64,000 nt of DNA, taken from Thermoanaerobaculia bacterium (lineage in GTDB: Bacteria; Acidobacteriota; Thermoanaerobaculia; Multivoradales; UBA5704). Below, piece by piece: positions 2,990 to 32,616 of the stretch. Where the stretch lies: the NCBI GenBank assembly GCA_038248205.1, contig JBBRUC010000003.1:596-64595 (forward strand), read 5' to 3'. The first letter of the stretch is position 1. Every line of letters begins with the position of its first letter. A program made the position numbers and the translations under genes. Under the pieces are notes generated by a model. The model saw only the letters and a list, made by a program, of their open reading frames with translations, searched no databases and was not told where the DNA came from.

Positions 2990-3151
2990 AGCCCTTCGCG
3001 CCACGAGAGACAAGACGAAACCAGCCCGGCATCCGGTGGGACGAACCTGTCCATCGGCGCCGTCGGTCGATCCGGCCCGGCACAACGGGCCCGCGGGCGA
3101 CCCTGACCGCTCCCCGAGACGCTCGGCGAGCAGAAACGAGGTTCCTACGAG

Positions 3152-3532
3152 ATGGCACGCGTCAAGCGCGGTACCAAGCGGGTCCACCGCCGCAAGAAGA
3201 TTCTCAAGCTCGCCAAGGGCTATTACGGCACCAAGTCGAAGGCCCACCGGATCGCCAAACTGGCGGTCGACAAATCTCTCAACTACGCCTATCGCGACCG
3301 CCGGCAGCGCAAGCGCCAGATGCGCGCGCTCTGGATCGTGCGGATCAACGCCGCCGCGCGCATCAACGGCCTTTCCTACAGCCGCCTGATCGCCGGGTTG
3401 AAGGCGGTCGGTTCGACGCTCGACCGCAAGGTGCTCGCCGACCTCGCCGTGGTCGATCCGGACGCGTTCGGCCGCTTGGCCGAAGCCGCGAAGGAAGCTC
3501 TCGGTCAAGGCACGTCCGCCGCGGGAGCGTAG
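3152..3532 (+). CDS. rplT: 50S ribosomal protein L20
   Basis: [26 protein letters not shown]...[23 protein letters not shown] is a canonical L20 sequence. Confidence 0.95.
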
Positions 3533-3533
3533 G

Positions 3534-4604
3534 GTGTCTGCCGCGGGCGATCCCAATCCCGACGCAAGCGGCGGCGCCCCGGCGGTCCTTCCGGAAAACG
3601 TAGGTTCCGAGTTCGAAAGCGCCCTCGCGGCGGTCGTTGATCGACCGTCGTGGGAGGCGCTGCGCCTGCATTGGACCGGCAAGAAGCAGGGGGTGCTGCG
3701 CTCGCTGCTGGAGGCGATCGGCAAGATCGCGCCGGCCGACCGCAAGACCTATGGCGAACAGGTCAACCGCTTGAAGGTCCGGGTCGAGGCGGGACTCGCT
3801 GCCAAAGACGCCGAGTTGCTCGAGGCTGAGCGCGAGGCGGCGATCGCCGCCGCCGCGATCGACGTCACCCTGCCCGGCCGGCGGCCGATCCTCGGCAGCC
3901 TCCACCCGGTGACCCGGGTGATGCGCGAGATGGAGCAGATCTTCGCCGAACTCGGCTACAGCGTCGCCGAAGGCCCGGAAATCGAAGACGACTTCCACAA
4001 CTTCACGGCGCTCAACTTTCCGCCCGATCATCCGGCGCGCGACACGCAAGACACCTTCTTCGTCGAAGGGGGCCTTCTGCTGCGCACCCACACCTCGCCG
4101 GTGCAGATTCGGACCATGCTGTCGCGCAAGCCGCCGATTCGCGTGATCTGTCCCGGCCGGGTCTACCGCTGCGACAACGACTTGCGCCACTCGCCGATGT
4201 TTCACCAGATCGAATGCCTGGCGGTGGCCGAGGGGATCACGTTCGCCGACTTGAAGGGGACGCTGCTGGCGTTCGTCCGCCGGCTGTTCTCGGCCGATAC
4301 GGGGGTGCGGCTGCGGCCGAGCCACTTCCCGTTCACCGAGCCCTCGGCGGAGGTGGACATCACCTGCGTGTTCTGCCGCGGCAACGGTTGCGAGACCTGC
4401 TCCGGCACCGGCTGGATGGAGATTCTCGGCTCCGGCATGGTCGACCCCAGGGTGCTGGAAGAGTGCGGGATCGACCCTTTGGTCTACAGCGGATTCGCCT
4501 TCGGCATGGGGGTCGATCGGGTCGCGATGCTGCGCTACGGCATCCCGAACATCCGAATGCTGTTCGATAATGACGAGCGCCTGCTGCGCCAGGTGAACCG
4601 CTGA
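3534..4604 (+). CDS. pheS: phenylalanyl-tRNA synthetase alpha subunit
   Basis: 356 aa with HPARDTQDTFF, LLRTHTSPVQIR and FPFTEPSAEVD motifs. The GTG start lies directly after the rplT stop. Confidence 0.95.
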   Translation: MSAAGDPNPDASGGAPAVLPENVGSEFESALAAVVDRPSWEALRLHWTGKKQGVLRSLLEAIGKIAPADRKTYGEQVNRLKVRVEAGLAAKDAELLEAEREAAIAAAAIDVTLPGRRPILGSLHPVTRVMREMEQIFAELGYSVAEGPEIEDDFHNFTALNFPPDHPARDTQDTFFVEGGLLLRTHTSPVQIRTMLSRKPPIRVICPGRVYRCDNDLRHSPMFHQIECLAVAEGITFADLKGTLLAFVRRLFSADTGVRLRPSHFPFTEPSAEVDITCVFCRGNGCETCSGTGWMEILGSGMVDPRVLEECGIDPLVYSGFAFGMGVDRVAMLRYGIPNIRMLFDNDERLLRQVNR

Positions 4605-7056: not shown

Positions 7057-7073
7057 GGGAGATCAGCGCGAAC

Positions 7074-7314
7074 GGATGGCACAGCCCTTCAGGCCTTCGA
7101 TAGTTTCGGCGCAGTACCCTGGGGCGATGCCCCAGGCTAGTATCGGGCGCGCCTGTGGCGCTCAAAATGCGCCCGACGGTAGAGGGGTAGAGGGGTAGAG
7201 GGTGGTTGGGCGGTCCGGGGTCAGGGCCGAAGGCCCGCCCAATACTAGCCTAGGGCAACGCCCTAGGTACCGGTTCGAACCGTATTTCCCAAGGGCTGAA
7301 GGCCCGTTCCATCC
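7074..7314. repeat. composite inverted repeat (two ~76-79 bp arms, MITE/REP-like)
   Basis: The left arm is 7074-7149 and the right arm is 7236-7314. The right arm is the reverse complement of the left at roughly three-quarters identity by eye. Each arm carries its own hairpin (cctggggcgatgccccagg / cctagggcaacgccctagg). The centre holds gtagaggg x3 (7179-7202) and the hairpin gggccgaaggccc. Confidence 0.8.
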
Positions 7315-7332
7315 ACCGCCCAACCGCGGGCC

Positions 7333-8439
7333 TCAACCCCCGATCGACATGAAGTTCGCCAGGTTGCCGCTGTTGCCTTGGAGCAGCAGGTGCTCCGCGG
7401 GCTTCTCTTGCAACACCCGCAGGATCTCCGCTTCGAGCACCCGCTCAGGGTTCGGCTCATCGAGCAGGTGGCGGAGCGGGTGGTTTCTCTCATCGAACAG
7501 GCAGAGACGCAGCTCCCCTCGGGCGGTCAATCGCAGGCGGTTGCAATCGGCGCAGAACGTGTGGGAAAGCGGGGTGATGAAGCCGATCTCGCCTTCTGCG
7601 CCTGCGAACCGATACGCCTGCGCCGGTCCGGTGCGGGGCCGGTCGGTTGCGACCTCCGCGAGCGGCCCCCAGCGATGTTCGAGCCGGGCGCGCACGGTGT
7701 CGCAGGTGAGACGGCCCACGACCAGGGCGCGGTTCGCCGGGGTGGGCATCATTTCGATGAAGCGGACGGAGAGCGGGCGGTGAAGCGTCAGCTCGGCGAG
7801 GCGCTCGATGTCTTCGAACCGGCCGTCGGCGAGCAGCACCGCGTTCAGCTTGACCGGCGCGAGCCTCGCGGCGAGAGCGGCTTCGATGCCGCGCCAGACC
7901 TGTTCCAACTCGCCGCGTCGGGCGATCCGGGCGAATTCTTCTGGGTCGAGGGTGTCGAGACTGACGTTGACCCGATCGAGACCGGCCGCTTTGAGCGCGG
8001 GTGCTAAGCGTTCCAGCTCCGTGCCGTTGGTCGAAAGGGACAGGTCTTCCACCCCCGGCAACGCCTTGATCCGGCGGACGATCTCCAACAGGTCCTTGCG
8101 TACCAGCGGCTCGCCGCCGGTCAGGCGGACCCGCCGGATGCCTAAGGAGACGAGACTGCCGACCAGGGTCTCGATCTCCTCGGGAGAGAGGAAATCGCGA
8201 TCGCCGAACGGAAACTCGGCATCCTCCGGCAGGCAGTAGACGCAACGCAGATTGCAGCGGTCGGTGACTGAAACCCGGAGGTAGGTGAGCCGGCGGCCGA
8301 AGGCGTCGATCAGCCGGCTTTCCTCTGGGGCGACCCCCGTGCGGACGAACGCGGGGAGGCCGGCGGACGGCCCGGAGGGCGTCGCGTCGGGCTTTGCCGC
8401 GCCGATCTGGTAGAGGTGTTCGTTCTTCATCCGCGTCAT
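7333..8439 (-). CDS. moaA: GTP 3',8-cyclase MoaA (molybdenum cofactor biosynthesis, radical SAM)
   Basis: Contains LRVSVTDRCNLRCVYCLP (CxxxCxxC), RLTGGEPLVR and a C-terminal CADCNRLRLTARGELRLCLF second cluster motif. An alternative ATG start is at 8430. Confidence 0.9.
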   Translation of the reverse strand: MTRMKNEHLYQIGAAKPDATPSGPSAGLPAFVRTGVAPEESRLIDAFGRRLTYLRVSVTDRCNLRCVYCLPEDAEFPFGDRDFLSPEEIETLVGSLVSLGIRRVRLTGGEPLVRKDLLEIVRRIKALPGVEDLSLSTNGTELERLAPALKAAGLDRVNVSLDTLDPEEFARIARRGELEQVWRGIEAALAARLAPVKLNAVLLADGRFEDIERLAELTLHRPLSVRFIEMMPTPANRALVVGRLTCDTVRARLEHRWGPLAEVATDRPRTGPAQAYRFAGAEGEIGFITPLSHTFCADCNRLRLTARGELRLCLFDERNHPLRHLLDEPNPERVLEAEILRVLQEKPAEHLLLQGNSGNLANFMSIGG

Positions 8440-8504
8440 CCGCCTGTCTCGTCGCCCGGCTGCAAAGGCGGAGCCGGACGGCGGGAGCGCGTCTTCTGCG
8501 TTCC

Positions 8505-8640
8505 AGCGGACCGGCCCACCTTTCCGAACACGGGAGGCGATCGGGTTTCCCCGACCACCCTAAAGATGCACTTTCTGGCGGTTCGGCCTCCCGCCGATGT
8601 CTCCGGGGAGGGTGGGCCGAACTCGGAGGGCCGTCTTCAT
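8505..8640 (-). promoter_or_regulatory. candidate Moco (molybdenum cofactor) riboswitch in the moaA leader
   Basis: The minus strand reads GGCCCUCCGAGUUCGGCCCACC...GGUCGGGGAAACCCGAUCGCCUCCCGUGUUCGGAAAGGUGGGCC. I recall CCUCCGAG, GCCUCCC and GGAAAGG as conserved blocks of the Moco RNA motif. GGCCCACC and GGUGGGCC can close a helix, and there is a GAAA-capped hairpin. The element lies upstream of moaA, as in E. coli. Confidence 0.55.
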
Positions 8641-9878: not shown

Positions 9879-9954
9879 GGGCCGATAGCTCAACTGGCAG
9901 AGCAGCAGACTCTTAATCTGCGGGTTGAAGGTTCGATTCCTTCTCGGCTCACCA
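9879..9954 (+). tRNA. tRNA-Lys (anticodon CTT)
   Basis: Hand-folded cloverleaf. The acceptor is gggccga/tcggctc and the D arm is gctc-aactggca-gagc. The anticodon stem gcaga/tctgc carries the loop ctCTTaa. The T arm is gaagg-ttcgatt-ccttc. CCA is encoded. Confidence 0.9.
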
Positions 9955-10006: not shown

Positions 10007-10092
10007 GCGAAAGTGGCGGAATCGGTATACGCGCTAGACTTAGGATCTAGTCCTGAGAAATCGGGTTGGGGGTTCGAGTCCCCCCTTTCGCA
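10007..10092 (+). tRNA. tRNA-Leu (anticodon TAG), type II with long variable arm
   Basis: The acceptor is gcgaaag/ctttcgc. The anticodon stem ctaga/tctag carries the loop ctTAGga. There is a long variable arm. The T arm is ggggg-ttcgagt-ccccc. The discriminator is A and no CCA is encoded. Confidence 0.9.
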
Positions 10093-16667: not shown

Positions 16668-16746
16668 ACCCCCATCCTCCGGTCCGTCATCCGGTTTTCC
16701 CGGGGATGGCCGAGAACCGAGTACAACGTAATTTGTGAGGAACGTC

Positions 16747-18039
<1,293 letters not shown>

Positions 18040-18849: not shown

Positions 18850-18970
18850 AGCTCATACTTCCAGTAGTGTGCTGTCACTTCTTACTTTTGCGAAGTGGCA
18901 ATCCTGCTTGCTGAGGCGTATACACTCCATGCTGCGGTGCTGGACCGGACCAGTCTTGGAGGGCTCTTCC

Positions 18971-21900
18971 ATGCCGAGTTGCCTCTCGTCGCTTTCGAGT
19001 GCTCGACGCGCCTGGATTCTTTGCGCGCTTTCCCTGTTCGTCGTCTTCGTGCTCGGCGCGCCACTGGCCGCCCAGCCTTGTGGAACCTGTCCAGGCGCGG
19101 ATCTCAACGTCTTCGTATGCAATCTTGCCGAGATCCCCAGCGCTTCGAATCCAAGCTGCAACACTTTGCCGGAGACCCAGAATTGCCGCACGCCCGTGAT
19201 TATTGCTCAGGCCGTCGAGGTAGTCTCCCAAGGAGGAGGCTTATTCACGGCTCGACTGCCGGTCCGGCTCGAGACCCTGGGCAACACTATGATCACGCCC
19301 AACGGCCGCTTGGATCTGTTCTGGAACCAGGGGCCTCCAGTCTCGCTTTCGACCTCCTTGTGCGAGAACAACACGACCGACGTTACAAAGACCTATCTGG
19401 AGCGCAGCAACCTTTCGTGTGCGGGCGCTCCCTATGACTTCGGAGTCTTTTCGGTGAGAGCATTCGTTTGCAGGGGCGCCGGCTCCTGCGAACGGTTCGC
19501 CGATGCAGCCAATTTGCCCTTTCGAGTGACCAAAGCTGATCTTGGTTGCCCCGAGCCACCGCTGTTCGGCTGCGACGACGACGCCTCTTGCACGACTTGC
19601 CTTGCGCTCGGTGGCGGCGGTTGTGGGGCGAGCTTGAGCGTCTCGGGCGAAGGTGCTGCTGTCACGCCCTGCCAAAGTGGGCCAGGAGCCCTGCTGCGCT
19701 ACCGTGCCGGAGGAGCAGGGGGTCCGGGCCTCCCCGGCTCGACCGCCTGGAACGCCACCCTCGGTCAATATTGGTCGCACGACTACGCGGAGCGCCTCGT
19801 CACCGACCCACCGGGTGACAATTCGCACGTCTGGCTGACCACCCGCTTCGCTACCTTTCGCGAATTTCGAGACCTGAACGGTGACAACGTTTACGAAAAG
19901 ATCCTTCCGAGCGACGAACACCGGACTCTCACCCGTGTTCCCGGAATCGGCTGGAGGCTGGAGGAACTCGACGGCACGTCCCGCGAATTCGATGTGACCG
20001 GCCGATGGACGCGCACCACCGACCGCAACGGCAATGCCAAATCGGGGTTCTACGGTGCCGGGGGACTGGAGCACGTCGATTTTCCGGACGGCCGGAAGGA
20101 GGAACTCACTTACGTAGGGGGCCTCCTGGCGACCATCACCGAAGTCGGTGTAGACGGCTCCCGGCGCTCGTGGGGTTATGCCTGGTCCGGTCTCGATCTG
20201 CAACGGATCACCCGCCCAGACAGCACGAAGTGGGAATTCTTCTACGCCGATCCCAGCCATCCGGGCTTCCTCACCCGAATGGATCTGGTCGGCACCGACG
20301 GCTCGCGGCGAGTCGAAGCGGCATATAGCTATGATGCGAGAGGTAACGTGGTCGAAATGTGGAGGGGGGCGCTCGTCTCGACGGACCCGTCGGCGGTCGA
20401 TCGTTGGCAACTCACCTATGACAATCCGATCCGACCAACCCGAACCGAGGCGAAGGATGCTCTCGGCGTTACTTCGGTCTACACCATTGGCCGCGATGTG
20501 ACCGGATCTTCGAAGCCGAAAATCCTGCAAATCCAGGGCGACTGCCCTACCTGCGGCACCGGCCCGAACTCCACTTTTGAGTACAACGATGCCGCAAACC
20601 CGCTGCTACCAACCGCCATTACGAGCGGTCGCGTGTTGCGAACCGAGATGGACTACGACGGGGTCGGCATGCTCTTGCGCCGCCGCGAGGCGGTGGGGAC
20701 TCCGAGGCAGCGCGAGACGACCTACACGTACTCGCTGATGTTTCGGGCGCTTCTGACTTCAATGGCCAAGCCCTCGACGTCCGGCGGTGTCGCGCAGCGA
20801 ACCTCGACCTACTTGCTTGATCCTCAAGGTAATCCGACGACGAGCCGCATCCAAGGGGTCGAAGCGGGCAGCGCCTTTCTGTTCGACACGATCACGACGT
20901 ACAGCGGCGTGGGTCAACCGCTCTCGTTCGATCCGCCCGGTTTTGCCTTAACCGACCAGACCACCTATACCTACAACTTCGCGGGTCGCAACGGTTTGAT
21001 CGCTGATTCGCGTACCGATCCTCTCGATCTGGGTACGACGCGCTTCGAGGTGGACGGCTGGAACCGTCGGACCCGTACGATCGATCCCAATGGGGTGGGA
21101 ACGACCACCTCCTTCGACACTTTGAACCGAATCGAATCGATCCGCCAGGAAGGCGCCGGGGCGGCTCCGGATCTGATCACCACCTCGACCTACAATCCAT
21201 TTGGCGATCTGATCTGGATGACCCTTCCTCGCGGCAACGTGATCGAGTACGGCTATGACAATGCTGGGAGGCTGATTTCGGTTGAGCGAAAGCCGGATGC
21301 GGCAACGTCCAAAGAGCGCACCCTCTACGCCCTCGACACGGTGGGCCACCGTTCGAGGGAAGATCGGCAGCGCTGGACCGGCACGGCCTGGGAAACACGG
21401 GCCACCACGAGCTTCGATTATTCGACCCGTTGCCACCTGGACCGCGTTCGTTTTCCGGATGGGTCAGCTTCAGAATACCGCTACGATTGCGACGGCAACT
21501 TGAGCGAGACGTGGGACTCCAATCATCCGATGGAGTCCAACCCGACCGCGACGATGCGCTACGACTACGATCCGTTGAATCGGCTCACTTCGGTCACCCA
21601 ACCGTGGGAGGGCACCGGCTCTGCGGTGACCACCTACGACTACGACGTTCAGGATCACCTGACCGCGGTTGTCGACGCGAACCAAAATCCGACCACCTAT
21701 ATTTATTCTGACCGCGATCGAATGACCTTGGAAGACTCGATTGTCACGGCGGTAAAGAGCTTTACCTACAACCCGCATGGAGAGCTGATTCAGGAGACCG
21801 ACGCCCGTCCGGTGACCACGACCCGCACGGTCGATGCGGCGGATCGGGTCACGCGGATCAGCTATCCGGACCCGTCTCTGGAAACCACCTACACGTACGG

Positions 21901-23584
21901 TACGACGTCAACGAGCTTCGACGTAGGCCGCCTGACCTCGATCGAACGTCCTGAGGCGATCGTAACCTACGCCTACGATCGATTCGGACGGATGATCGGC
22001 GACGGCGAGATGAATTATCAGTACGACGCCAACGGCAACCGGCAGACGCTTACGTATCCGAACGGAGTCCAGGCCCAGCAGAGCTTCGACTTCGCGGATC
22101 GGCCGCTCGGAGCAATGCTGGTCGATGGCGCGAACTCGCCGCAAATGCTGGCAAGCGATGCGATCTACGAACCGTTCGGACCGCTCGCGAGCTTGACGCT
22201 CGGCAACGGGCTCGTCGAAACGAGAACGTTCGATCAGCGCTATTTTCCGCAATCCATCGTGGTTCCCGGCCGACTCTCCTGGACTTACGACCAAGACAAG
22301 GTGGGTAATCCGCTGGCGATCACGGACACGTTGGTCCCAGCGAACAGCCGGACCTTCACGTATCAGGATCCCCAATACTTCCTCCGGGGGAGCACGGGTC
22401 CATGGAACCCGGAGATTTTCACCTACGACAAGATCGGCAACCGGCTGACCGATGGCGGCAATGCCTACCTCTACCGCTTGAATTCTACTGGCGGCAATAC
22501 ACCGGTGCTCCTCAGCCGGGGAGGCTTGGCCTACACCTACGATTCAATCGGCAATGCGACATCGATCAATTCGACGTCTATCATCTACGGCGACGACCGG
22601 GCGATGCAGGAGCTGGGCAAGGCGCGCTCGGCCTACTACGACGGGCGAGGCTTCCTCTCGAGCTTCAGCTACTCGAAGTACGGACCGATCGCCGTGCCAG
22701 CTTTCACAGCTCCGGTTTACGGCTCCGAAGGGCGCCTCTACGCCCGCACGGATCGCGATGACTTGCTTGGCACGAACACCACGGCTCATGTCTTCTACTT
22801 CGGAGATCGCCCGATTACAACCCTTGAAAAAGGGACGATCAACCGCCTGCTGTACCTGACGACCGATCATCTGGGTACGCCGGCATTGGCGACCGACGGA
22901 ACTGGAGGGATTGTTTGGCGCGGAGTCTTTCGTTCCTTTGGCGTCGACGATAGCGGGGCGCAGGCGGCTGGAGTCTTCCTGCGGTTCCCGGGCCAGTGGC
23001 AAGATGACTACTGGCTGGGATTGGGAAAGTTTGAACTCAGCTACAACGTACACCGGTGGTACGAGGCGGGGGTTGGGCGGTATACGACTCCGGATCCGGT
23101 GGCACCTCCGGCAGTTGGCCACCTCTATTCGTACGGTATCTCGAACCCAAGCCATTATGTCGACCCGGATGGGCGAGCGCCTCGACTGATCAATTCGGCC
23201 TGGTTTCCTCCGGAGGTTCCCTGTCTCACCGCGGCTGGCATTGGAACCGCCTGGCATTGGATTGTCCGCGGTAGCGGTCCGCGCTTCGCCCACTGCTACG
23301 CCAGCTGCCTGCTGGCCAAGTGCGGAGGGCAGAACCTGGCGATTCAGATGGGAGCGAACAAGGAATTCTTCGACCTTGCGGTTTGTGCAGGCATCAAGAG
23401 TTCGTCGGGCGGCATGCTGGCGTTTGTGCGCGAAAAGCACTGCCATAGTGCATTCCAAGACAGCGACATCGGGGACAATAAGTTTGGCATCAACTGTCCG
23501 ATGAACATCTCTTGTGGCCAACGGTGTGGCGACCTCTTCCCCGAACCGGACACACCAGGAGGGCCCTTCTCAAATGTGCGCTAA
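18971..23584 (+). CDS. RHS/YD-repeat polymorphic toxin with Sec signal peptide and orphan C-terminal domain
   Basis: There are many YD repeats (YDANGN, YDYDVQDHLT, YGYDNAGRL, YTYDSIGN). The RHS core end reads DHLGTPALATDGTGGIVWRGVFRSFG ... RWYEAGVGRYTTPDPV ... YVDPDGR. The start is taken at ATG 18971, which gives MPSCLSSLSSARRAWILCALSLFVVFVLGAPLAAQ. 133 residues follow the DPDGRAP boundary. Confidence 0.9.
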   Translation: MPSCLSSLSSARRAWILCALSLFVVFVLGAPLAAQPCGTCPGADLNVFVCNLAEIPSASNPSCNTLPETQNCRTPVIIAQAVEVVSQGGGLFTARLPVRLETLGNTMITPNGRLDLFWNQGPPVSLSTSLCENNTTDVTKTYLERSNLSCAGAPYDFGVFSVRAFVCRGAGSCERFADAANLPFRVTKADLGCPEPPLFGCDDDASCTTCLALGGGGCGASLSVSGEGAAVTPCQSGPGALLRYRAGGAGGPGLPGSTAWNATLGQYWSHDYAERLVTDPPGDNSHVWLTTRFATFREFRDLNGDNVYEKILPSDEHRTLTRVPGIGWRLEELDGTSREFDVTGRWTRTTDRNGNAKSGFYGAGGLEHVDFPDGRKEELTYVGGLLATITEVGVDGSRRSWGYAWSGLDLQRITRPDSTKWEFFYADPSHPGFLTRMDLVGTDGSRRVEAAYSYDARGNVVEMWRGALVSTDPSAVDRWQLTYDNPIRPTRTEAKDALGVTSVYTIGRDVTGSSKPKILQIQGDCPTCGTGPNSTFEYNDAANPLLPTAITSGRVLRTEMDYDGVGMLLRRREAVGTPRQRETTYTYSLMFRALLTSMAKPSTSGGVAQRTSTYLLDPQGNPTTSRIQGVEAGSAFLFDTITTYSGVGQPLSFDPPGFALTDQTTYTYNFAGRNGLIADSRTDPLDLGTTRFEVDGWNRRTRTIDPNGVGTTTSFDTLNRIESIRQEGAGAAPDLITTSTYNPFGDLIWMTLPRGNVIEYGYDNAGRLISVERKPDAATSKERTLYALDTVGHRSREDRQRWTGTAWETRATTSFDYSTRCHLDRVRFPDGSASEYRYDCDGNLSETWDSNHPMESNPTATMRYDYDPLNRLTSVTQPWEGTGSAVTTYDYDVQDHLTAVVDANQNPTTYIYSDRDRMTLEDSIVTAVKSFTYNPHGELIQETDARPVTTTRTVDAADRVTRISYPDPSLETTYTYGTTSTSFDVGRLTSIERPEAIVTYAYDRFGRMIGDGEMNYQYDANGNRQTLTYPNGVQAQQSFDFADRPLGAMLVDGANSPQMLASDAIYEPFGPLASLTLGNGLVETRTFDQRYFPQSIVVPGRLSWTYDQDKVGNPLAITDTLVPANSRTFTYQDPQYFLRGSTGPWNPEIFTYDKIGNRLTDGGNAYLYRLNSTGGNTPVLLSRGGLAYTYDSIGNATSINSTSIIYGDDRAMQELGKARSAYYDGRGFLSSFSYSKYGPIAVPAFTAPVYGSEGRLYARTDRDDLLGTNTTAHVFYFGDRPITTLEKGTINRLLYLTTDHLGTPALATDGTGGIVWRGVFRSFGVDDSGAQAAGVFLRFPGQWQDDYWLGLGKFELSYNVHRWYEAGVGRYTTPDPVAPPAVGHLYSYGISNPSHYVDPDGRAPRLINSAWFPPEVPCLTAAGIGTAWHWIVRGSGPRFAHCYASCLLAKCGGQNLAIQMGANKEFFDLAVCAGIKSSSGGMLAFVREKHCHSAFQDSDIGDNKFGINCPMNISCGQRCGDLFPEPDTPGGPFSNVR

Positions 23585-24194
23585 TTCCCGAGGTCGATCT
23601 CGGGCTGGTGCATTAGGTTGCATTCTAGTTCTGCTCCTCAACGGTACCTGCCGCCCTACTGATTGCCCAGCCGAACCGGCCGACTCAAGAGCAACATCGG
23701 CGGTATGTCGGGGAACCCTTGAGGATAGAGCTGGCTATCTGCACCGGTTGGTCTTCCGACCTCTGTCGGGCTCCTCGTGGAAGCGCTGCGTAGATATTTC
23801 GCTGCTCGAAGGGTTCTGGCCGGGAATGACGATTCGGCAAGCAAGGAAGGTAATCGGACCCGAGAACTCGGAGGGTAGGAGCCGGTTCGGAACCTTCTGG
23901 CTCTATGAACGACCCGGCGGGACGATCCGAATCTCTCTGGAAGACATCGGTTCGACCATCTTGCCGGTAGATCGAGCGTGGAGATTGAGCGCGCTTCCTC
24001 GCGACCGCAGGATCGAGGCGGTTTTCGGTCCAGAGATCGTGGGGAAGATTCCGTCGGGGCTTACGGACTATGAAGCCGTCGTGCTCACGCAGTGCGGCGT
24101 TCCGGCGATTCATGTAGATGTGAAGAGTGGGCGAGTTGCAAGGGTGGCCTGGAACCGGAACCGAGGCTCAATGCCAAGCCCGCGCGAAAAGTGA
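23574..24194 (+). CDS. putative immunity protein 1 (exported)
   Basis: ATG at 23574 overlaps the RHS stop. The N-terminus has a hydrophobic segment, ALGCILVLLLNG. It is a paralog of the next gene (shared GF.PGMT..AR, RP.GT..ISLED.GS, W.LSA.P, RVAR..W). Confidence 0.6.
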   Translation: MCANSRGRSRAGALGCILVLLLNGTCRPTDCPAEPADSRATSAVCRGTLEDRAGYLHRLVFRPLSGSSWKRCVDISLLEGFWPGMTIRQARKVIGPENSEGRSRFGTFWLYERPGGTIRISLEDIGSTILPVDRAWRLSALPRDRRIEAVFGPEIVGKIPSGLTDYEAVVLTQCGVPAIHVDVKSGRVARVAWNRNRGSMPSPREK

Positions 24195-24284
24195 TAGCTT
24201 CGGACTGACCTTCGGTGCAGGCGCATCAGGCCGAACCGCCGGGGAGGCTTGGCTTACACCTACTGGCCCGTTTGGAATTCGGCC

Positions 24285-24956
24285 GTGACCAAGCTCGTGA
24301 TTTGCTGCTCGAACTTCTTGTTTAGGTTCAGGTTCTGTTTCCTGGCCACCCTTCTTGGGTGTGGCGACTTTCGCCCTGAGAGCTGCGCAGAAGATGGCCT
24401 CCGCGACTTGGCTTACACAGGCCCGTGTGTCGCGGGGGTACGTCAGCACGGGAGGAACGAGTTCTATGTCAGTTCTCGCCCTCGCTGCGCCTGGGAACGC
24501 ATGGTGAATCTCACGTATTTCGAGGGATTCCGTCCCGGCATGACCAACCTTGAAGCTCGGCGGCTACATGGCACCCCCACGAGCGTTGAACGTAACGGCC
24601 GGACTGCCATTTGGAACTTTCAGAGACCGATGGGTACGGTCTCGATCAGCCTTGAGGACCAAGGGTCGTCGCTTCTTGTCGACCGTTGGTGGCTCTTGAG
24701 CGCCTACCCCTTGAACCAAGCGCCTGCGCAGTCTCTTTCCGCGGAAGTGCTTCAAAGCGTAGGATCAAGAGGCAACGATTTTCAGATCGTCATTTTAAAC
24801 GGCTGTGGATTCCCGGCTGCAGAGATATCATTCGAGCGAAATCGCGTAGCACGAATCAGGTGGCTAGAGAATGCCGGATCATGGCATTCAAGAATGGCGA
24901 GCTTCGATGGAACAAGAGAGGCTTCCGACGGAGATTCTCGGAACGGAGGCCGGTGA
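24285..24956 (+). CDS. putative immunity protein 2 (lipoprotein, paralog of 23574..24194)
   Basis: A GTG start at 24285 gives VTKLVICCSNFLFRFRFCFLATLLGC with an LLGC lipobox. By eye it is about 35-40% identical to the preceding gene over the C-terminal ~130 aa. Confidence 0.6.
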   Translation: MTKLVICCSNFLFRFRFCFLATLLGCGDFRPESCAEDGLRDLAYTGPCVAGVRQHGRNEFYVSSRPRCAWERMVNLTYFEGFRPGMTNLEARRLHGTPTSVERNGRTAIWNFQRPMGTVSISLEDQGSSLLVDRWWLLSAYPLNQAPAQSLSAEVLQSVGSRGNDFQIVILNGCGFPAAEISFERNRVARIRWLENAGSWHSRMASFDGTREASDGDSRNGGR

Positions 24957-24999
24957 CCGGCGCGGCAACCAGTTCTCCGGTGCGTAGAATGGGCCGCCA

Positions 25000-26472
25000 T
25001 CACCGCGCCGGAACGAACCGCTCCCGGGCCAACGATCGCAATTCTTCCAACTCTTCGGCCCGTGTGCGGGAAAGCGGCAACGTCGCCGCCAACTCGGCGC
25101 TCAAGCCCTCCGTCGTCAGTCGATCGCCGTTGCCGTCGAGCAGGCCATAGAGGGCGGCTACGACGGCTTGTTCGATCTCGGCGCCGCTCCACCCTTCGGA
25201 TTCCTGCGCCAGGCGTTCCAGGTCGACTTCCGCGGGATTCTGGCGGCGTAGGCGGAGGTGAATCTCGAAGATCTCCCGGCGTTCTTCCCGGGTGGGCAGG
25301 TCGATGAAGAAGATCTCGTCGAAGCGCCCTTTGCGCAGTAGCTCGGGCGGCAGGGAGTCGAGGTCGTTGGCGGTCGCGACGACGAACACCGGTTCCTTGT
25401 GCTCTTGAAGCCAGGTGAGAAAGCTGCCGAACAGCCGGCGGGAAAGGCCCGCGTCGGCCGTGCCGTCGCCTTGGGCGAAAGCTTTTTCGATCTCGTCGAT
25501 CCAGAGGACGATCGGTGCCTGGGCTTCGGCGGTCTCTAGCGTGAGACGAAGGTTCTTCTCCGTTTCGCCGACGAACTTGTCGAACAGGCGCGACGGGTCG
25601 AGGCGGGCGAGCGGCAACCCCCACGAGCGGGCGATCGCCTTGGCGCTCAGGCTCTTGCCGCACCCTTGAACGCCCACCAACAGCAGGCCGCGCGGCGCCG
25701 GAAGCCCGAGGGTACGGGCCTTGGCGCCGAATCCGGCGTGGTGGCGCCGTAGCCATTCTTTGAGTCGGGCGGCGCCGCCGAGGTCGGCGATCTCGCCGCC
25801 CACTTCGCAGAGTTCGAGCACGCCGGTCTGCTCGATCTCCTCCCGCCGCGCGGCGAGCACGAGCGGCAGGTCGGCGGCGCAAAGCGCACCGTCCGACAGG
25901 GTCGCCCGGGTGATCAACCGCCGAATCTCGGCGATGGTCAGACCGCGCAATGCCTGGACCATCCGCTCCAGCTCTTCGCCTTGGAGTTCGAAGCGCAGCT
26001 TCGTCGTTCCGCGAAGGGCGCGGAACGTGTCGATGATCGACCTTCGGATCTCGTCGGCGTCCGGCCATTCCAGGCGGTAGCGGGCGGCGACCCGCGCCAG
26101 CTCACGCGGTAGGTCGAGGGACGGGGCGGAGAGGACGAGTGTGAGCAGTCGTCCCGGCGAGCCTTCCGCCAGCTCGCGCAGAGCCCGCACGACCCCCGGA
26201 GTTTCAAGGTAGGGATGGAAATCCTGAAGCAGGAAAATCGACGGCCAGGCGGTCGTGCGAATCGCGGCCAGGACCGCGAGCGGCTCGCACGCCTCGGGCG
26301 TCGAGGGGCGTGCACCTTCGCAGATCATCCCGGCCGAAACCGACCAGGTGTAGAACGTAAACCCCAACGCCTTGGCCGCGCGGGCGAGCCGTTCCCGCAG
26401 CCGCTCCTCGTCATACGTCTCGACGTAGAGGATCGGATAGCGGGACTGAAGGAGAAGGGAGAGATCTTCCAA
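25000..26472 (-). CDS. AAA+ ATPase, Ycf46-like
   Basis: The N-terminus [19 protein letters not shown] resembles Ycf46-type proteins. Walker A is GVQGCGKS and Walker B is [12 protein letters not shown]. There is an [28 protein letters not shown] second region of homology. Confidence 0.85.
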
Positions 26473-27333: not shown

Positions 27334-27825
27334 ATGAGTCAAGGATTCCGCGACCTCTTCATCTCCGAGCTCCGCGATGTCTATAGCGCCGAAAGTCAGA
27401 TCCTCAAAGCGTTGCCGAAGATGGTCAAGGTGGCCCGCAACAAGGAGTTGAAGCAGGCCTTCTCCGACCATCTGGCGGCGACCAAGGTTCATGTCGAGCG
27501 GCTCGGCGGCATCTTCCAAACCCTCGGAGTCGCCAAGAAGGGCAAGCTGTGCAAGGGCATGGAAGGGCTGCTCGCCGAAGGGGCGGAAGTGATCGCCGAG
27601 GACATGCCGGCGGAGGTCAAAGACGCCGCATTGATCTCGGCCGCCCAGCGGGTCGAGCACTACGAGATGGCCGCCTACGGCTGCCTTCGGGCCTTCGCCA
27701 AGGCGCTCGGCGAGTTGGAGATCGCGCGCGTCCTGCAGGCCACCCTCGACGAAGAAGGCGACGCCGATCGCCTGCTCTCCCAGATCGCCGAGTTCGCGGT
27801 CAACCTGGAGGCGTCGACGCAGTAG
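27334..27825 (+). CDS. ferritin-like YciE/YciF family protein (DUF892)
   Basis: LFISELRDVYSAESQILKALPKM...AAQRVEHYEMAAYG...LDEEGDADRLLSQIAE matches the DUF892 pattern. The ATG is at 27334. Confidence 0.85.
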   Translation: MSQGFRDLFISELRDVYSAESQILKALPKMVKVARNKELKQAFSDHLAATKVHVERLGGIFQTLGVAKKGKLCKGMEGLLAEGAEVIAEDMPAEVKDAALISAAQRVEHYEMAAYGCLRAFAKALGELEIARVLQATLDEEGDADRLLSQIAEFAVNLEASTQ

Positions 27826-30508
27826 CCGACGCAGCCGGTGGAGTCGGGTTTGCCGCTTTCCGTGAGTTCCCCTTCTTTCGCGGCACACGGAAGTGAAGCG
27901 GTTCCTCCTCGGTGAGCGGCAGACCTTCCGCGTTCAAGACCCTTAAGTAGACCGAGAACGGGTGCCGATCGTCGACCCGCTCCGCAAGCTTTCTCGGCAA
28001 GCTCACGTCGTAACGGAACTTGCTGAGCGCAAACGGACCCTCGGGCACCGCCTGAGGCTGGCCGACGGGCACCTGAGCCACCGCCAGCGGTAGGTCCGCG
28101 CGAATGCGCGAGCGGCGCAGCTCGATACGCAGGCGATGATTCGGCGCGAAGCGAAGGTCGCTATAGAGCGAGACGTAAAAGACCTTCGGCAACCGAACGT
28201 TGACTTCCGGAGCTTCAGGTTGGACGTAAAACATTCGACCGGCGATCAGGCGCGGCGCAGAAGAGCGCAAGCTGTCGATGTCGCGCGCCTGCGCCGCGGT
28301 TTCAACGGTCGAGCCATCGAGCCGTTGCGGCGACCCGTTGGTGCCCGGCGTGGAAGCCACGGTGCCCACGGGAGCGGCCTCGGGCTCGGCCGCGAGGCCT
28401 CCTAAATTAGAGATCGGCGAACGGCCGCGAGTCAGGCGCATCGGTCGGGGCATCTGGTCGGTCCAAATCTCGCCGCTGCTGCTGGCACCCGCCTGGGCGG
28501 TTCCGTCGGCCGCTTTGCCTGCCGCGAGGATCAGGCGCGAAACGATCCGGTAATCTTCGCGCCGGAGCGACTGCTTGGTCCAGCCGCGCGCGTCGATTTC
28601 ACCGTGCGCCGCACGAAACCGAAAACCATCGAACCAGGACACGAAGCGCTCGGCGTCGGTCAAGCGTCGCCGCTCGCGGAACCCATGGGCCGCCTTCCAG
28701 GCGGCGCGCCGCTCGGGATTGAGCCACGATTCGCCTTCCTCCTCCCCGAGAAACGCCTGGGCCACCGTGCGCCATACCTCTTCGGAATGCAGCGTAAGAA
28801 GGCGGGCGAGAGCCTGGCCGCGGGCACCCACCGTAAACGACGCGACTACGCCGATCGTTTCCTCGCCGAGCAACTCCGGTGGCGGCGCCGGGTTGCCCGG
28901 CAGCGTACGCCAGAGGTCCGCCACCTTGGCGCGCGGCTCCGCCCGGGCCTGGCGATCCCGGATCGTCGTGCGAACCTCGATCGCGCGCGGCTGCGCCGCT
29001 TCCGTGCCGTCTGGATGGGTGGCCTGGAGGGTCAAGACTTCACTCGATCCCTGATCGCGACGGCGGCCGATGTTGCGGACCTTCAAGCTGCTTCGCTGGC
29101 CCTGGGTCGCTTCGCGCACTATCGCTTTGCCGATTTCGACGTCCTGCACGACCGCCAGCCCCTGGCGTTTGGCGCGGAACCAGGAAGGGAAGCGAGCCAA
29201 AAAGTTCAGATCGCGCCGATCTCCCGATCGTAATTCCGCGGTGAGGATCTCCACCCCGCGGCCCCGCTTCGCCGCTTCGATCGGGCTTTTGAGCCGAACT
29301 CGATTCTTGGCGCCGAGAAGGTCATCCAACGCCGCGCGCCCCTCCGGGGTGCGGAGGTCGAACCGGTAGACCAGGTCGGCGGCGCGAAACTGGTTGGTGT
29401 TGCGGCGGTCCTGGAGGAACGTGTAGCCGTAGCGCAGAAACAGCAGCCGTATCTCCGGCCGGATCTTGATCGGCGTCAGCTCCCGGCCCTTTGCCGCGAT
29501 CGTCCGGATCCGCACCAGCACGTGGTCGTTTTCCTGCTCGATCACCGTGGTCTCGCGGATCAGGCGGTAGAAATACTCGAAGCTCGCCCGCAATCCGATC
29601 TCGTGGGCGCTCAGGCGCAGCGGCGAGATGCCGACGAACGCCGTGTAGGTTGCGCCGTCGCCCGGCTGAAGTCGCCGGTCGGCCGAGGTGAACAGATCCG
29701 TCTTGAGCGGAAAGCCGAGGTCGACGTAAAGGGTCATCGGCTCGACGAACCCCTCGAAATAGAGCGCGCCCTTTTCCGTGTCCTCAAAGCCCAGGTTGAT
29801 CTCGGTCGCGAGGCCGTCGAGCAGCGCGAGGACGGTTCGGCCGACGCGCGGCAGGATGCGCTTTCTAAAGCGGGCGTCGCGCGAGTCCCAGTAACCGGCC
29901 AGCTCGGCGCGCAGATTCTCTCGGGTCGCCGTCCGCGAAAAGGCGGGGCCGAGTTGGCGCGGCGGCTGCGTCTCCGCGGCGGTCAGCACGAAGCCCGACT
30001 CGGCGTGAAGGCCGATGTTGATCGTCGAATTCGAGTCCGGCAGGTAGTCGACGTCGACCGTGGTCTTGGCCCGCGCCGAGTTGACCGTTTGAAACCAGGA
30101 GAGATCGCGCTCCTTGACGGTGCTGCCGGGCGCCATTTCGAGATGCTTGTCGAGCACGCGGCGCGAATAGGTGATCGCGGCGTCGAGCTTGGTGCCCGAC
30201 CAGGTTTGGCCGAACGAAATATCGAGATCGCCCAGCTCCTGGAACAGGTCGCCGCTGCGCGCTTCGCGGAACAGCTCGTTGTCGAAAAACTCTCCCGCCC
30301 CTTCGAACGAGGCGCCGTTGAACGAACCGATGCGAACCCAATTCGTCTGGGGCGGCGCCTCGGTTTCATCGGCGATCGTGCCCACGGGGAAACCGAGGAC
30401 GAAGGCGGCCAGGGCGAACGATGCGAGCCGGAGGCGGCGCTTCGATCGCTGGCCCGGACATCGCAAGAGGGGGGCGGATGATTCGAGAGGGAGCGAGTTC
30501 GTGGTCAT
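27800..30508 (-). CDS. large secreted/membrane-anchored hypothetical protein
   Basis: The long ORF has protein-like composition throughout. The start is taken at Met 30508, which gives MTTNSL...RLRLASFALAAFVLGFPVG (signal/anchor). I recognise no family. Confidence 0.6.
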   Translation of the reverse strand: MTTNSLPLESSAPLLRCPGQRSKRRLRLASFALAAFVLGFPVGTIADETEAPPQTNWVRIGSFNGASFEGAGEFFDNELFREARSGDLFQELGDLDISFGQTWSGTKLDAAITYSRRVLDKHLEMAPGSTVKERDLSWFQTVNSARAKTTVDVDYLPDSNSTINIGLHAESGFVLTAAETQPPRQLGPAFSRTATRENLRAELAGYWDSRDARFRKRILPRVGRTVLALLDGLATEINLGFEDTEKGALYFEGFVEPMTLYVDLGFPLKTDLFTSADRRLQPGDGATYTAFVGISPLRLSAHEIGLRASFEYFYRLIRETTVIEQENDHVLVRIRTIAAKGRELTPIKIRPEIRLLFLRYGYTFLQDRRNTNQFRAADLVYRFDLRTPEGRAALDDLLGAKNRVRLKSPIEAAKRGRGVEILTAELRSGDRRDLNFLARFPSWFRAKRQGLAVVQDVEIGKAIVREATQGQRSSLKVRNIGRRRDQGSSEVLTLQATHPDGTEAAQPRAIEVRTTIRDRQARAEPRAKVADLWRTLPGNPAPPPELLGEETIGVVASFTVGARGQALARLLTLHSEEVWRTVAQAFLGEEEGESWLNPERRAAWKAAHGFRERRRLTDAERFVSWFDGFRFRAAHGEIDARGWTKQSLRREDYRIVSRLILAAGKAADGTAQAGASSSGEIWTDQMPRPMRLTRGRSPISNLGGLAAEPEAAPVGTVASTPGTNGSPQRLDGSTVETAAQARDIDSLRSSAPRLIAGRMFYVQPEAPEVNVRLPKVFYVSLYSDLRFAPNHRLRIELRRSRIRADLPLAVAQVPVGQPQAVPEGPFALSKFRYDVSLPRKLAERVDDRHPFSVYLRVLNAEGLPLTEEEPLHFRVPRKKGNSRKAANPTPPAASATASTPPG

Positions 30509-30696
30509 GGTCGCCTTCGAGGGAGTGCAGATCTTACGCCTCGCGGGCCTCAAACGAAGAGAGGGCGCACAAACGTCGAAAATCGGGTCGGCTCCGGCAA
30601 GTGTTGCGTACTTCTTCCGTCGAACGGGCGCAGGTTTTTCCGGTGCGCGGTTTGACCTCCCTGATATAGCATCCTCCTCCTCCAACGGAAAAGTCT

Positions 30697-32616
30697 TTGG
30701 CCGATCTCGAGCTTACCTGGTCGCCCCCGCGGCGCCGCTTTCGCAAGGTGCTGATCGCGATGTGCGGAATTTTCGGTTTGGCCAGCGCAAATTTTCTCTA
30801 CGTTCGCGCCGCGGCGTCGTGGCTTCGTTCGCCCGAATTGGCGCGACGGCTCAACCATCGGCCGGAGCGGTTCCGCATCTCCTGGCGCGAGGCGAAAAGC
30901 CCGTTTCCCGGTTGGCTTGTGGTTCGAGATCTGGAGCTTGCCGGGCGGACCAGGAGGGCGCGCTGGAGCCTCCATGCCGACGAGGCCCACGGTTTTTTGA
31001 GCCTGCCGTCGCTCCTGCGCCGCCGTGTCGTCGTAGACGATCTCGTGGGGGCGGGCGTGGTGATCCGGGTCGCGCGGATGCTGCCGCCCGGCGCGCCGCC
31101 GATCGCGGGGCAGCCCCCGATCGTGCCGGACTTTCCCCAGAGCGCGGCGGAGTTCGAAGCGTCGCTGGATGCCCCTTCCGATCGCCCCCGATGGACGATC
31201 GAGCTGCCGGACGTAACCCTCGAACGGGTTCGCGAGCTATGGCTCGAACGTTGGCGGTTCGCCGGAGCGATGAAGGCCCACGGCGGCCTGCGTTTGCGCC
31301 TGCGGCGCGACGCCGAGGTGTTCGCCAGCCGGTTGGATCTCCTGCATGCGAATTTGACCGTCGTCGGCCGGCCGGCCGGTGTGCTGCGCGGCTCGGTCAA
31401 GGCGCTCGCCTCCCCTTACTCGCCGCGCGAAGAACGAGGCTGGGCGGCGGTTCGGCACGTCTCCGGCGAAGGGCGCCTTCGAGGCGAGCTTTCCTCGCTC
31501 AACTTTCTGGTCGGTTTGATGCCGAACGTGCCCTGGTTCTCGGTCGAAGGGGGGGTGGGGAGCTTTACGGCGCGGCTTCTCCTCGCCCGAGGCAAGCTCG
31601 GGCCGGGCAGCACGGCCAAGATCGAGGCGCGTAGCGCCAACGTCTCCTTCCTCGACTATCAGGCCAAGGGCCGGGCGCTCCTCTCCTGGCAGGTCGGGCG
31701 GCAGGGCGCCGTCGGCCGGGTGGATCTTTCCGATTGCGAGATCCGTCGCCGGGGGGCGGCGGCTCCGTTCGCCCGCGCGCCGAAGCTCCATGTAGGCGTC
31801 ACCTCGCGCGATCTGGAACTCGACGGCCGGCTCACCGACATCGCGGGCGAAGCCGATCTGCCGCGCGCCGAGGTACCGGACCTCCGCACCTACAACGCCT
31901 ATCTGCCCGCTGGATCGGGGGTTGAGATCACCGGCGGTACGGGGGTCTTTAGCACCCGGTTGAAGATCGCCCCTTCCGGCCGGGCAAGCGGCGCCATGGA
32001 CCTCACCGCGAAGAACGTCGCCGCGACCGGCAGGGGCCTTACCCTACGCGGAGGCTGTCGAATCTCTCTGGCGCTCGCGAGCCGCGATGTCCGGAGCCGC
32101 CGCTTCGACCTCGACGGCAGCCGAATGCGCTGCGACGACGTCGAGGTCCGCGACGGCCGGCAAGGCACGGGGGACCCCTCGTCCACCGGCTGGTGGGTGG
32201 AAGGCCGGGTGCTCGACGGGGTGGCCGCCGCCGGGGCGGAAAACTACCTTTCCTTGGCCGGAAAGATCCAGGCGCGCGACGCGCTGCCGATCTTCGCCCT
32301 GTTCGGCGACCGGCCGGCCGCCAAGATCGCCGCGCTGTTCTTTCGCGAAAAGAGCATCGCCGCCACCGGCAGAGTCGATCTGGCGAGCGCTTCGTGGCGG
32401 GCGCAAGGCGAGGGGAAGGCCGGCGCACGGCTGACCGCCGCCGCCCGCCTTTCCGGCCGCCGCGGCCAGATCGACGGCGCGCTGCTCGCCGGGATCGGCA
32501 AACGCCGGATCGGTATCGAGCTGGACGGAGCGGAGCGAACGATCCACTGGCGCCATGCCGCGGACTGGTTCGCGGCCGGCGAATCGGGGATCCGAAAGAG
32601 CGGAGCACACCGGTGA
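30697..32616 (+). CDS. membrane-anchored AsmA/TamB-like protein (tentative)
   Basis: There is an N-terminal TM segment (VLIAMCGIFGLASANFLYV). It is followed by long beta-rich repetitive sequence with a L.L.G......L pattern reminiscent of AsmA-family proteins. The family call is tentative. Confidence 0.5.
   Translation: MADLELTWSPPRRRFRKVLIAMCGIFGLASANFLYVRAAASWLRSPELARRLNHRPERFRISWREAKSPFPGWLVVRDLELAGRTRRARWSLHADEAHGFLSLPSLLRRRVVVDDLVGAGVVIRVARMLPPGAPPIAGQPPIVPDFPQSAAEFEASLDAPSDRPRWTIELPDVTLERVRELWLERWRFAGAMKAHGGLRLRLRRDAEVFASRLDLLHANLTVVGRPAGVLRGSVKALASPYSPREERGWAAVRHVSGEGRLRGELSSLNFLVGLMPNVPWFSVEGGVGSFTARLLLARGKLGPGSTAKIEARSANVSFLDYQAKGRALLSWQVGRQGAVGRVDLSDCEIRRRGAAAPFARAPKLHVGVTSRDLELDGRLTDIAGEADLPRAEVPDLRTYNAYLPAGSGVEITGGTGVFSTRLKIAPSGRASGAMDLTAKNVAATGRGLTLRGGCRISLALASRDVRSRRFDLDGSRMRCDDVEVRDGRQGTGDPSSTGWWVEGRVLDGVAAAGAENYLSLAGKIQARDALPIFALFGDRPAAKIAALFFREKSIAATGRVDLASASWRAQGEGKAGARLTAAARLSGRRGQIDGALLAGIGKRRIGIELDGAERTIHWRHAADWFAAGESGIRKSGAHR

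Follow-up and report, generated by a model that had tools for sequence, protein, structure and literature searches.

A cysteine-rich RHS toxin tip in an acidobacterial genome related by profile to the prok-SAA family of the Lipocone superfamily

The Lipocone superfamily, defined by Burroughs, Nicastro and Aravind (eLife 2025, PMC12419801), includes an SAA-Wnt clade composed of prok-SAA, Min-Wnt, serum amyloid A (SAA) of animals and animal Wnt. In the ancestral active site of the superfamily, helix 2 contributes a His, helix 3 a Glu and, at its end, an acidic residue, and helix 4 an Asp, after which come a polar residue and a Gly that caps the helix; distinguishing marks of the SAA-Wnt clade are an sNxxGR motif and a short fifth helix that stacks between H2 and H4 (PMC12419801). 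SAA-like Lipocone domains have already been described as polymorphic-toxin tips, and the immunity proteins of Lipocone toxins are all transmembrane proteins or lipoproteins (PMC12419801). Among characterised relatives, the Streptococcus intermedius LXG toxin TelC, of the prok-TelC family, cleaves lipid II and shows its toxicity outside the cytoplasm only (PMC12419801). YfiM is a Ca-dependent lipid-linked oligosaccharide pyrophosphatase with essential residues K28, H31, E72 and D91, its overexpression leads to osmotic lysis, and VanZ and Llp1 have been put in the same pyrophosphatase family (bioRxiv 10.64898/2026.09.16.752124). Here we analyse the C-terminal tail, or tip, of an RHS protein encoded in a 64,000-nucleotide stretch of a Thermoanaerobaculia bacterium (GCA_038248205.1, contig JBBRUC010000003.1, positions 596 to 64,595; hereafter the window). 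Profile comparison establishes its homology to prok-SAA, and the tail is with high confidence a divergent, extra-cysteine member of that family.

The tip, its family and its placement in prok-SAA

The translation of window positions 23162-23584 is DPDGRAPRLINSAWFPPEVPCLTAAGIGTAWHWIVRGSGPRFAHCYASCLLAKCGGQNLAIQMGANKEFFDLAVCAGIKSSSGGMLAFVREKHCHSAFQDSDIGDNKFGINCPMNISCGQRCGDLFPEPDTPGGPFSNVR, followed by a stop, and forms the in-frame end of an open reading frame (ORF) of 1571 codons. A preliminary description of this DNA, made from its letters alone, had counted nine cysteines and picked out several motifs in the residues after DPDGRAP. The translation bears this out: the segments DPDGRAPRLINSAWFPPEVPCLTAAG, RFAHCYASCLLAKCGG, KHCHSAFQDSD, CPMNISCGQRCG and the closing SNVR occur in that order, the tail is 133 residues long after DPDGRAP (135 after DPDGR), and the cysteines fall at tail positions 16, 40, 44, 49, 70, 89, 107, 113 and 117. 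The tip is of soluble type (highest 19-residue Kyte-Doolittle window 1.16, grand average of hydropathy -0.02) and has no transmembrane-like segment. The same description took the RHS core to end canonically ahead of a variable payload, and the Rhs_assc_core match (TIGR03696) agrees, covering ORF residues 1357-1435 and stopping exactly at DPDG. Together with matches to RHS_repeat (3e-24, in ten stretches), RHS (1e-7) and YD_repeat, this gives the ORF the parts of an RHS polymorphic toxin, namely YD/RHS repeats, a core ending in a DPxG motif and a variable tip after YVDPDGR. RHS proteins cleave themselves at the motif that ends the core, and this one would presumably do the same.

Searches of Pfam, NCBIfam, PADLOC, PHROGs and PDB sequences (phmmer) with the tail gave no match, even at E<=10, so that at the level of these searches the earlier remark that the tail has no common toxin signature holds. 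A word-indexed search of 5.8 billion proteins with the tail also gave no match. An exhaustive HMMER scan of 1.84 billion cluster representatives (clusters at 50% identity) returned 92 proteins at E<1e-3, with 35 of them at E<1e-10 and 3 of them at E<1e-30; the resulting family profile had no match among PDB sequences. The matched module is about 110 residues long and always C-terminal, lying 0-44 residues from the protein end and at most 31 residues from it in all but one case. Because so many clusters match at the first two thresholds, and always at the C-terminus, the tail is, as judged from sequence, a real conserved domain rather than a chance tail. All six long family members scanned (1099-1721 amino acids) are RHS-repeat proteins. 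Among the other members are many fragments and short "orphan" cassettes in which no more of the RHS core is left than its tail. The closest relatives so far are in Acidobacteriota genomes, a taxonomic spread that is under-sampled, as the genome scan used a narrower alignment of 8 sequences and returned four loci.

The window's tail and 76 trimmed domains make up the family alignment (A1, 77 sequences), which is about 30% identical overall and has the consensus RYAHCxASCxIxKxCG...KExxD...C...CxSAFQPSDFxDNxxGRxCP...SC...C...PPGPF. H39, C40, C44, E63, G104 and C113 are invariant, and C16, K62, D66, C70, C89, S91, A92, Q94, D97, D100, N101, C107, C117, G129 and P130 are at least 90% conserved. A Cys stands at position 49 or 50 in 76 of the 77 sequences, and nine Cys positions are thereby conserved across the family. 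H88 and H90 of the KHCHS segment are not conserved. C70 and C89 are lost jointly in one member, a pattern that suggests a disulfide between them.

Two named families recurred as weak matches when the 77 members were scanned against Pfam, SAA (6/77, best E 0.0076) and DUF6973 (2/77, best E 0.0023), and these led to the Lipocone paper. Hidden Markov models (HMMs) were built from the 64 prok-SAA and 34 Min-Wnt sequences in its Figure 1 source data (PMC12419801). The prok-SAA HMM matched residues 37-123 of the window's tail at 32.1 bits (conditional E 8e-12) and matched all 77 family members. In the reverse direction, at E<1e-3, the family HMM found 58 of the 64 prok-SAA sequences (best 52.7 bits) and 3 of the 34 Min-Wnt sequences. 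Profile-profile alignment of the family with prok-SAA by hhalign gave 98.4% probability (P=1e-14). As a control, the prok-SAA HMM was run on six-frame translations of the 64-kb window and seven related loci, where it matched the toxin tips only. Min-Wnt was a weak match (4.3 bits for the window's tail; hhalign 32.8%), and comparison of the family with 24 animal SAA sequences gave 9% (P=0.0035) with the His, Glu and D..N..G motifs in register, which by profile makes the tail a relative of animal SAA only via prok-SAA. H39, E63, D66 and D97, at the frequencies listed in Table 1, are all present in the window copy and fit the published His/Glu/acidic/Asp pattern. The "orphan" label given to the domain at the outset does not survive these results: at least 92 sequence clusters share the module, and a confident profile match to a described toxin family, which the preliminary description had named as grounds for giving up the label, was found in the published prok-SAA family.

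Two other assignments were considered. Membership of Pfam SAA was dropped, the direct comparison with animal SAA being weak and the Pfam threshold missed, and membership of Min-Wnt/DUF6973 was set aside on the low HMM and hhalign values above and the appearance of DUF6973 in 2 of the 77 relatives. Subfamily signature motifs (SAFQP, AHCM/W/Y, PPGPF and others) were absent from the SAA-Wnt-clade source data files of PMC12419801, and a literature search found no experimental work on the prok-SAA branch later than the 2025 paper. What appears to be new here is a subfamily with five extra cysteines, an inserted helix and SAFQPSDFxDN and PPGPF motifs, often with no motif Arg.

An AlphaFold2 model computed on A1 was confident (mean predicted local distance difference test score (pLDDT) 93.9, predicted template-modelling score 0.85) and all-helical, with no beta-sheet. 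Its helices span residues 14-29, 35-50, 52-72, 79-91, 95-105 and 113-120. R36 and H39 lie on the second helix and K62, E63 and D66 on the third; the helix at 95-105 holds D97, D100, N101 and G104, its capping residue, and the short last one holds C113 and C117. The predicted layout is that of the published Lipocone/SAA-Wnt four-helix core with a short fifth helix, except that helices 3 and 4 are separated by one additional helix (79-91). The i,i+4 spacing of C40/C44 on helix 2 and of C113/C117 on helix 5 suggests, in the model, paired helix-to-helix disulfides. The top TM-scores in Foldseek were those of human SAA1 (4ip8/4ip9; TMq 0.42-0.43, TMt 0.52-0.54, probability ~0.3, E ~5), and a phage DUF6973 protein was also among the highest (TMq 0.41); these scores are non-significant and are consistent with the prok-SAA placement of the model without proving it.

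Candidate immunity genes, related loci and the wider window

Two genes downstream of the RHS ORF are candidate immunity genes (Table 1). They are paralogous (35% identity over 184 residues, E=6e-32), and the product of the first, with a hydrophobic N-terminus, is identical to a 206-residue protein in a public record (P0097). Homologues adjoin related toxin tips in four other loci, designated L001, L002, L004 and L005. L001 comes from a Thermoanaerobaculia metagenome-assembled genome (MAG), with toxin and partner respectively 67% and 66% identical to those of the window, and L002 and L004 come from a Holophagales MAG. An adjacent gene thus co-varies with the tip, as two paralogues in the window and as homologues at four loci, and is predicted to protect against it. 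The lipobox Cys is invariant in a five-sequence alignment of partner proteins and is the only Cys so conserved; canonical lipoboxes are seen in the second window ORF (LLGC), L001 (IAGC), L002 (ILGC) and L004 (LLGC).

The partner protein had no significant match in Pfam, PDB-profile or Foldseek searches. Non-significant hints came from BamE (9pxg_E, E=2) and DUF4309 (4ygt, probability 0.6, E=0.34). BamE-like Lipocone immunity proteins are recognised by a membrane anchor and a two-helix hairpin followed by three beta-strands, and the partner model (pLDDT 82) consists of two units of helices followed by 3-4 strands. The immunity type with "4 absolutely conserved Cys" (PMC12419801) was ruled out, the lipobox Cys alone being invariant. 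The lipoprotein partners could not be matched to any immunity type in PMC12419801 and are a candidate undescribed family.

Other related loci carry different partners. In L003, the tip gene (81-881) is overlapped by a downstream gene (878-1273) for a hydrophobic 131-residue protein that looks four-transmembrane by eye. In L006, the domain sits on a 205-residue protein (3001-3618) with its own signal peptide and a mere stub of RHS core, and the overlapping gene that follows (3587-4501) encodes a signal-peptide protein with an FGE-sulfatase domain. The L003 and L006 proteins are candidate alternative immunity types for the subfamily. Taken together, the lipoprotein-type, four-transmembrane-like and signal-peptide partners fit the published rule for Lipocone immunity.

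The arrangement of the cassettes also varies. Directly upstream of the SAA-like tip of L004 lies a second RHS C-terminal tip with a HEIGH metallopeptidase motif and its own small downstream ORF (99-1196 and 1221-1697, plus strand), so that the two tips form an array of toxin/immunity cassettes; the gene for the SAA-like tip's lipoprotein partner is convergent there with the toxin gene (3114-2392). L005 has the SAA-like tip as a stand-alone cassette of 249 residues (3001-3750) downstream of a 1717-residue RHS gene, and its lipoprotein homologue (ORF 3751-4386) begins directly after the tip's stop codon, as a displaced "orphan" toxin/immunity module. In L001, the immunity homologue is followed by a second small ORF (7071-7463, plus strand) with an N-terminal membrane anchor and a BamE-like motif (GTSQSEVLAVLGPP), possibly an orphan immunity gene directed at some other toxin.

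Table 1. Features of the RHS toxin locus in window coordinates, with residue frequencies taken from alignment A1
Feature	Position	Strand	Remarks
RHS/YD-repeat polymorphic toxin ORF	18869..23584	+	1571 codons; longest version opens at GTG 18869
RHS-associated core ending YVDPDGR, shell/toxin-tip boundary	22937..23176	+	TIGR03696 match and sequence
Toxin tip, Cys-rich prok-SAA-like Lipocone domain, 135 residues	23177..23581	+	Stop codon 23582-23584
prok-SAA-aligned core, tail residues 32-123	23270..23545	+	hmmsearch residues 37-123, hhalign residues 32-122
R36-F-A-H39, predicted catalytic His on helix 2 with basic residue at -3	23282..23293	+	H 77/77, R 67/77; aligned to prok-SAA (K)YFH motif
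K62-E63-F-F-D66, predicted catalytic Glu on helix 3 with acidic residue near helix end	23360..23374	+	E 77/77, K 71/77, D 71/77
D97-I-G-D100-N101-K-F-G104, helix 4, predicted catalytic Asp and sNxxG(R)	23465..23488	+	D97 76/77, D100 75/77, N101 73/77, G104 77/77
Candidate immunity gene 1, 206 amino acids	23574..24194	+	ATG overlaps last 11 nucleotides of RHS ORF; AGGAGG 11 nucleotides upstream
Candidate immunity gene 2	24249..24956	+	Likely start GTG 24285 (MTKLVICC...FLATLLGC), canonical lipobox

At the other end of the RHS ORF, ATG 18971 is the likelier start codon, as predicted from sequence, and would open a signal-peptide-like N-terminus (MPSCLSSLSSARRAWILCALSLFVVFVLGAPLAAQP). The N-terminus is strongly hydrophobic (peak 2.56 over a 19-residue Kyte-Doolittle window). 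Within 18971-19080, a twin-arginine-like SARRAW motif precedes the strong hydrophobic stretch, and the ~300 residues after it are Cys-rich and contain no Pfam domain. The GC content falls to 0.56-0.60 over 23200-25000, a segment with the toxin tip and both immunity genes, versus 0.62-0.71 in the flanking housekeeping genes, which fits a horizontally exchanged cassette.

The wider neighbourhood is of housekeeping type, with genes for ClpX, Lon, a GTPase, MqnA and an AAA ATPase, and an ORF at 16735-18039 whose translation looks Rho-like by eye. Rfam matched two Acido-Lenti-1 RNAs ~60 nucleotides apart, at 7118-7162 (plus strand) and 7223-7267 (minus strand), scoring 37 and 41 bits (gathering score 37); the pair suggests an acidobacterial origin of the window. 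A molybdenum-cofactor riboswitch (62 bits) at 8501-8640 on the minus strand lies upstream of the minus-strand ORF 7333-8439, and tRNA genes are found at 9879-9951 and 10007-10092 (plus strand). Two long ORFs, 27800-30685 (minus strand, 961 amino acids) and 30697-32616 (plus strand, 639 amino acids), have no Pfam match at 1e-5 and are candidate genes or GC-rich artefacts.

Proposed mode of action and its alternatives

Taken as a whole, it is fairly probable that the locus encodes a disulfide-stabilised, SAA-like Lipocone RHS tip that acts periplasmically on phosphate-linked lipid head groups and is countered by lipoprotein immunity. Release of the tip, housed by the RHS shell, would take place at the DPDG motif. 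Its site of action would then be extracytoplasmic in the target cell, either the periplasm, where disulfides can form, or the inner membrane's outer face. Extracytoplasmic action is likely, and an extracytoplasmic, disulfide-stabilised tip is the better of the two options in the preliminary description because nine Cys positions are conserved and the products of the adjacent genes all appear to be exported or membrane-bound. The phosphate-linked head group of a lipid would be cleaved or exchanged in a pocket of R36, H39, E63, D66, D97 and N101, and a divalent cation (Ca2+ or Mn2+) would probably take part; that the tip is an enzyme on lipid head groups is, by analogy with its relatives, moderately probable. 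The likeliest substrates would be undecaprenyl-pyrophosphate-linked envelope precursors such as lipid II, because the characterised superfamily relatives TelC and YfiM act on such substrates, and this specific assignment is possible rather than probable. Loss of the precursor would block wall synthesis and lyse the target cell, and the two lipoprotein-like paralogues encoded downstream would bind the tip in the producer's periplasm and so protect the producer.

Several observations weigh against this proposal. No prok-SAA toxin has been assayed experimentally (PMC12419801), and we infer the activity, substrate and metal dependence of the tip alike. The Pfam SAA model (PF00277) did not match the window's tail at E<=10, and Foldseek comparison of the model with PDB and BFVD gave no significant match, with TelC not among the PDB matches. 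Position 105, which is Arg in 41 and Ile in 11 of the 77 sequences, is Ile in the window copy (DNKFGI versus the consensus DNxxGR). Nine cysteines leave one unpaired if all others pair. The lipobox of the first candidate immunity gene is degenerate (LNGTC). As to delivery, no secretion-system genes, including type VI secretion system and PAAR genes, were found near the RHS locus.

The closest competing explanation keeps the fold and the family and changes the substrate to bulk membrane phospholipid, with removal or exchange of the head groups of phosphatidylethanolamine, phosphatidylglycerol or cardiolipin by a phospholipase-D-like or transphosphatidylation reaction. Lipocone enzymes such as PTDSS1/2 do exchange phospholipid head groups, and other lipid targets have been left open for the toxin families (PMC12419801), but TelC and YfiM, the characterised cases, act on polyprenyl-pyrophosphate-linked substrates, and the preprint says the same of VanZ and Llp1. 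Nothing in the tip sequence discriminates between the two kinds of substrate, and we regard bulk phospholipid as unlikely. Less likely still is a non-catalytic, SAA-like lipid or membrane binder, with cell death caused by its insertion into the membrane, by membrane disorder or by capture of a lipid or an outer-membrane protein. Animal SAA, which binds E. coli OmpA, is claimed to be an opsonin and has no demonstrated enzymatic activity, and animal Wnts, described as catalytically inactive members of the same clade, lend this some credit (PMC12419801), as does the missing motif Arg of the window copy. However, invariant H39, E63 and G104 and the retention of D97, N101 and D66 in 92-99% of sequences at ~30% overall identity form an active-site pattern, and the tip contains no amphipathic or transmembrane-like hydrophobic segment.

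The preliminary description had offered two readings of the His-Cys pairs, and the one that is not a disulfide-stabilised extracytoplasmic fold loses ground here. A Cys/His hydrolase, a peptidase or amidase of papain or NlpC/P60 type using the AHC or HCH pairs, would agree with the invariant H39-C40 of the subfamily, and many effectors acting in the periplasm are Cys/His amidases. The fold of such enzymes is alpha+beta, a helix bearing the catalytic Cys and a beta-strand the His, whereas the confident model is all-helical, and no peptidase family or structure was matched. The Cys adjacent to the His is also dispensable: some prok-SAA sequences (FHAKANC, YHSVAHC) lack C40, as do most animal SAAs (FHARGNY), and the His is kept in them. 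The i,i+4 spacings at C40/C44 and C113/C117 suggest disulfides and the HCH histidines vary, leaving a hydrolase very improbable. The nine cysteines could instead bind zinc in a toxin acting in the cytoplasm, such as a nuclease or translation inhibitor. The cytoplasm is the site of action of many RHS tips, zinc sites can arise in Cys-rich helices, and a few weak zinc-finger matches, in one member each, appeared in Pfam. This too is highly unlikely, given partner genes of lipoprotein, four-transmembrane or signal-peptide type, none cytoplasmic-looking, the homology of the tail to secreted soluble lipid-directed domains and the lack of a match to any nuclease or cytoplasmic toxin family.

This toxin tip, blank in standard annotation, finds a place in a family that dates only from 2025, and the locus is a compact testable cassette, with a tip of 135 residues, named candidate catalytic residues and two candidate immunity genes. 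The nine-Cys subfamily, with its inserted helix, SAFQPSDFxDN motif and lipoprotein partner, widens the known diversity of Lipocone toxins and their immunity. With a positive assay, a bacterial SAA-like toxin would for the first time have biochemical evidence behind it, and the result would bear on the proposal that animal SAA is derived from a lipid-head-group enzyme and may still behave as one. It is a serious possibility, just short of probable, that the extra-cysteine clade is an active SAA-family enzyme carried on RHS shells that destroys undecaprenyl-pyrophosphate-linked precursors in the periplasm of rivals and is countered by a previously undescribed lipoprotein immunity family. If true, the toxin/immunity pair would be a tractable route to the ancestral biochemistry of SAA, whose molecular function in animals is debated.

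Comparison with known systems

Secreted phospholipase A2, which is recognised by a catalytic CCxxHDxC motif, a Ca-binding loop and a fold of its own, was considered as a possible relative and rejected: the motif is absent from the tip, and no phospholipase A2 appeared among the Pfam, PDB-profile or Foldseek matches.

Among characterised enzymes, YfiM has an essential Lys at -3 and His, an essential Glu and an essential Asp, which correspond to R36/H39, E63 and D97 of the tip. YfiM, VanZ and Llp1 are, unlike the tip, integral-membrane housekeeping enzymes, and the tail is related to them through the superfamily only. TelC is, like the tip, a toxin tip of the Lipocone superfamily; it cuts at the undecaprenyl-pyrophosphate linkage and is neutralised by the membrane-anchored, extracytoplasmic TipC. 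It differs in belonging to another clade and in being secreted by a type VII secretion system on an LXG carrier in a Gram-positive bacterium, and its likeness to the tip is one of superfamily, as assigned in PMC12419801.

Within the SAA-Wnt clade, Min-Wnt (Pfam DUF6973) is a sister family that shares H...E...NNxxGR motifs and use as a polymorphic-toxin tip, but it lacks cysteines and has a longer fifth helix. Animal SAA (PF00277; 4IP8, 4IP9) has the same helix order as the tip, with the motifs in register, and SAA1 gave the highest TM-scores among the PDB matches. The direct similarity nevertheless stays below significance (hhalign 9%, Foldseek E ~5), animal SAAs are mostly without cysteines, and they are acute-phase apolipoproteins rather than RHS cargo.

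The closest system is prok-SAA itself, likewise a polymorphic-toxin tip with membrane or lipoprotein immunity (PMC12419801). In both it and the tip, helix 2 carries (K/R)xxH-C...C, helix 3 (K/R)ExxD and helix 4 D...sNxxG, and a short fifth helix contains CxxxC; both are soluble and end in a proline/glycine-rich tail (RPxGL in prok-SAA versus PPGPF here). Unlike prok-SAA, the subfamily has five extra conserved Cys positions (16, 49/50, 70, 89 and 107), a different helix 1 and, between helices 3 and 4, an inserted helix ending in C-x-SAFQ, and the window copy replaces the motif Arg with Ile.

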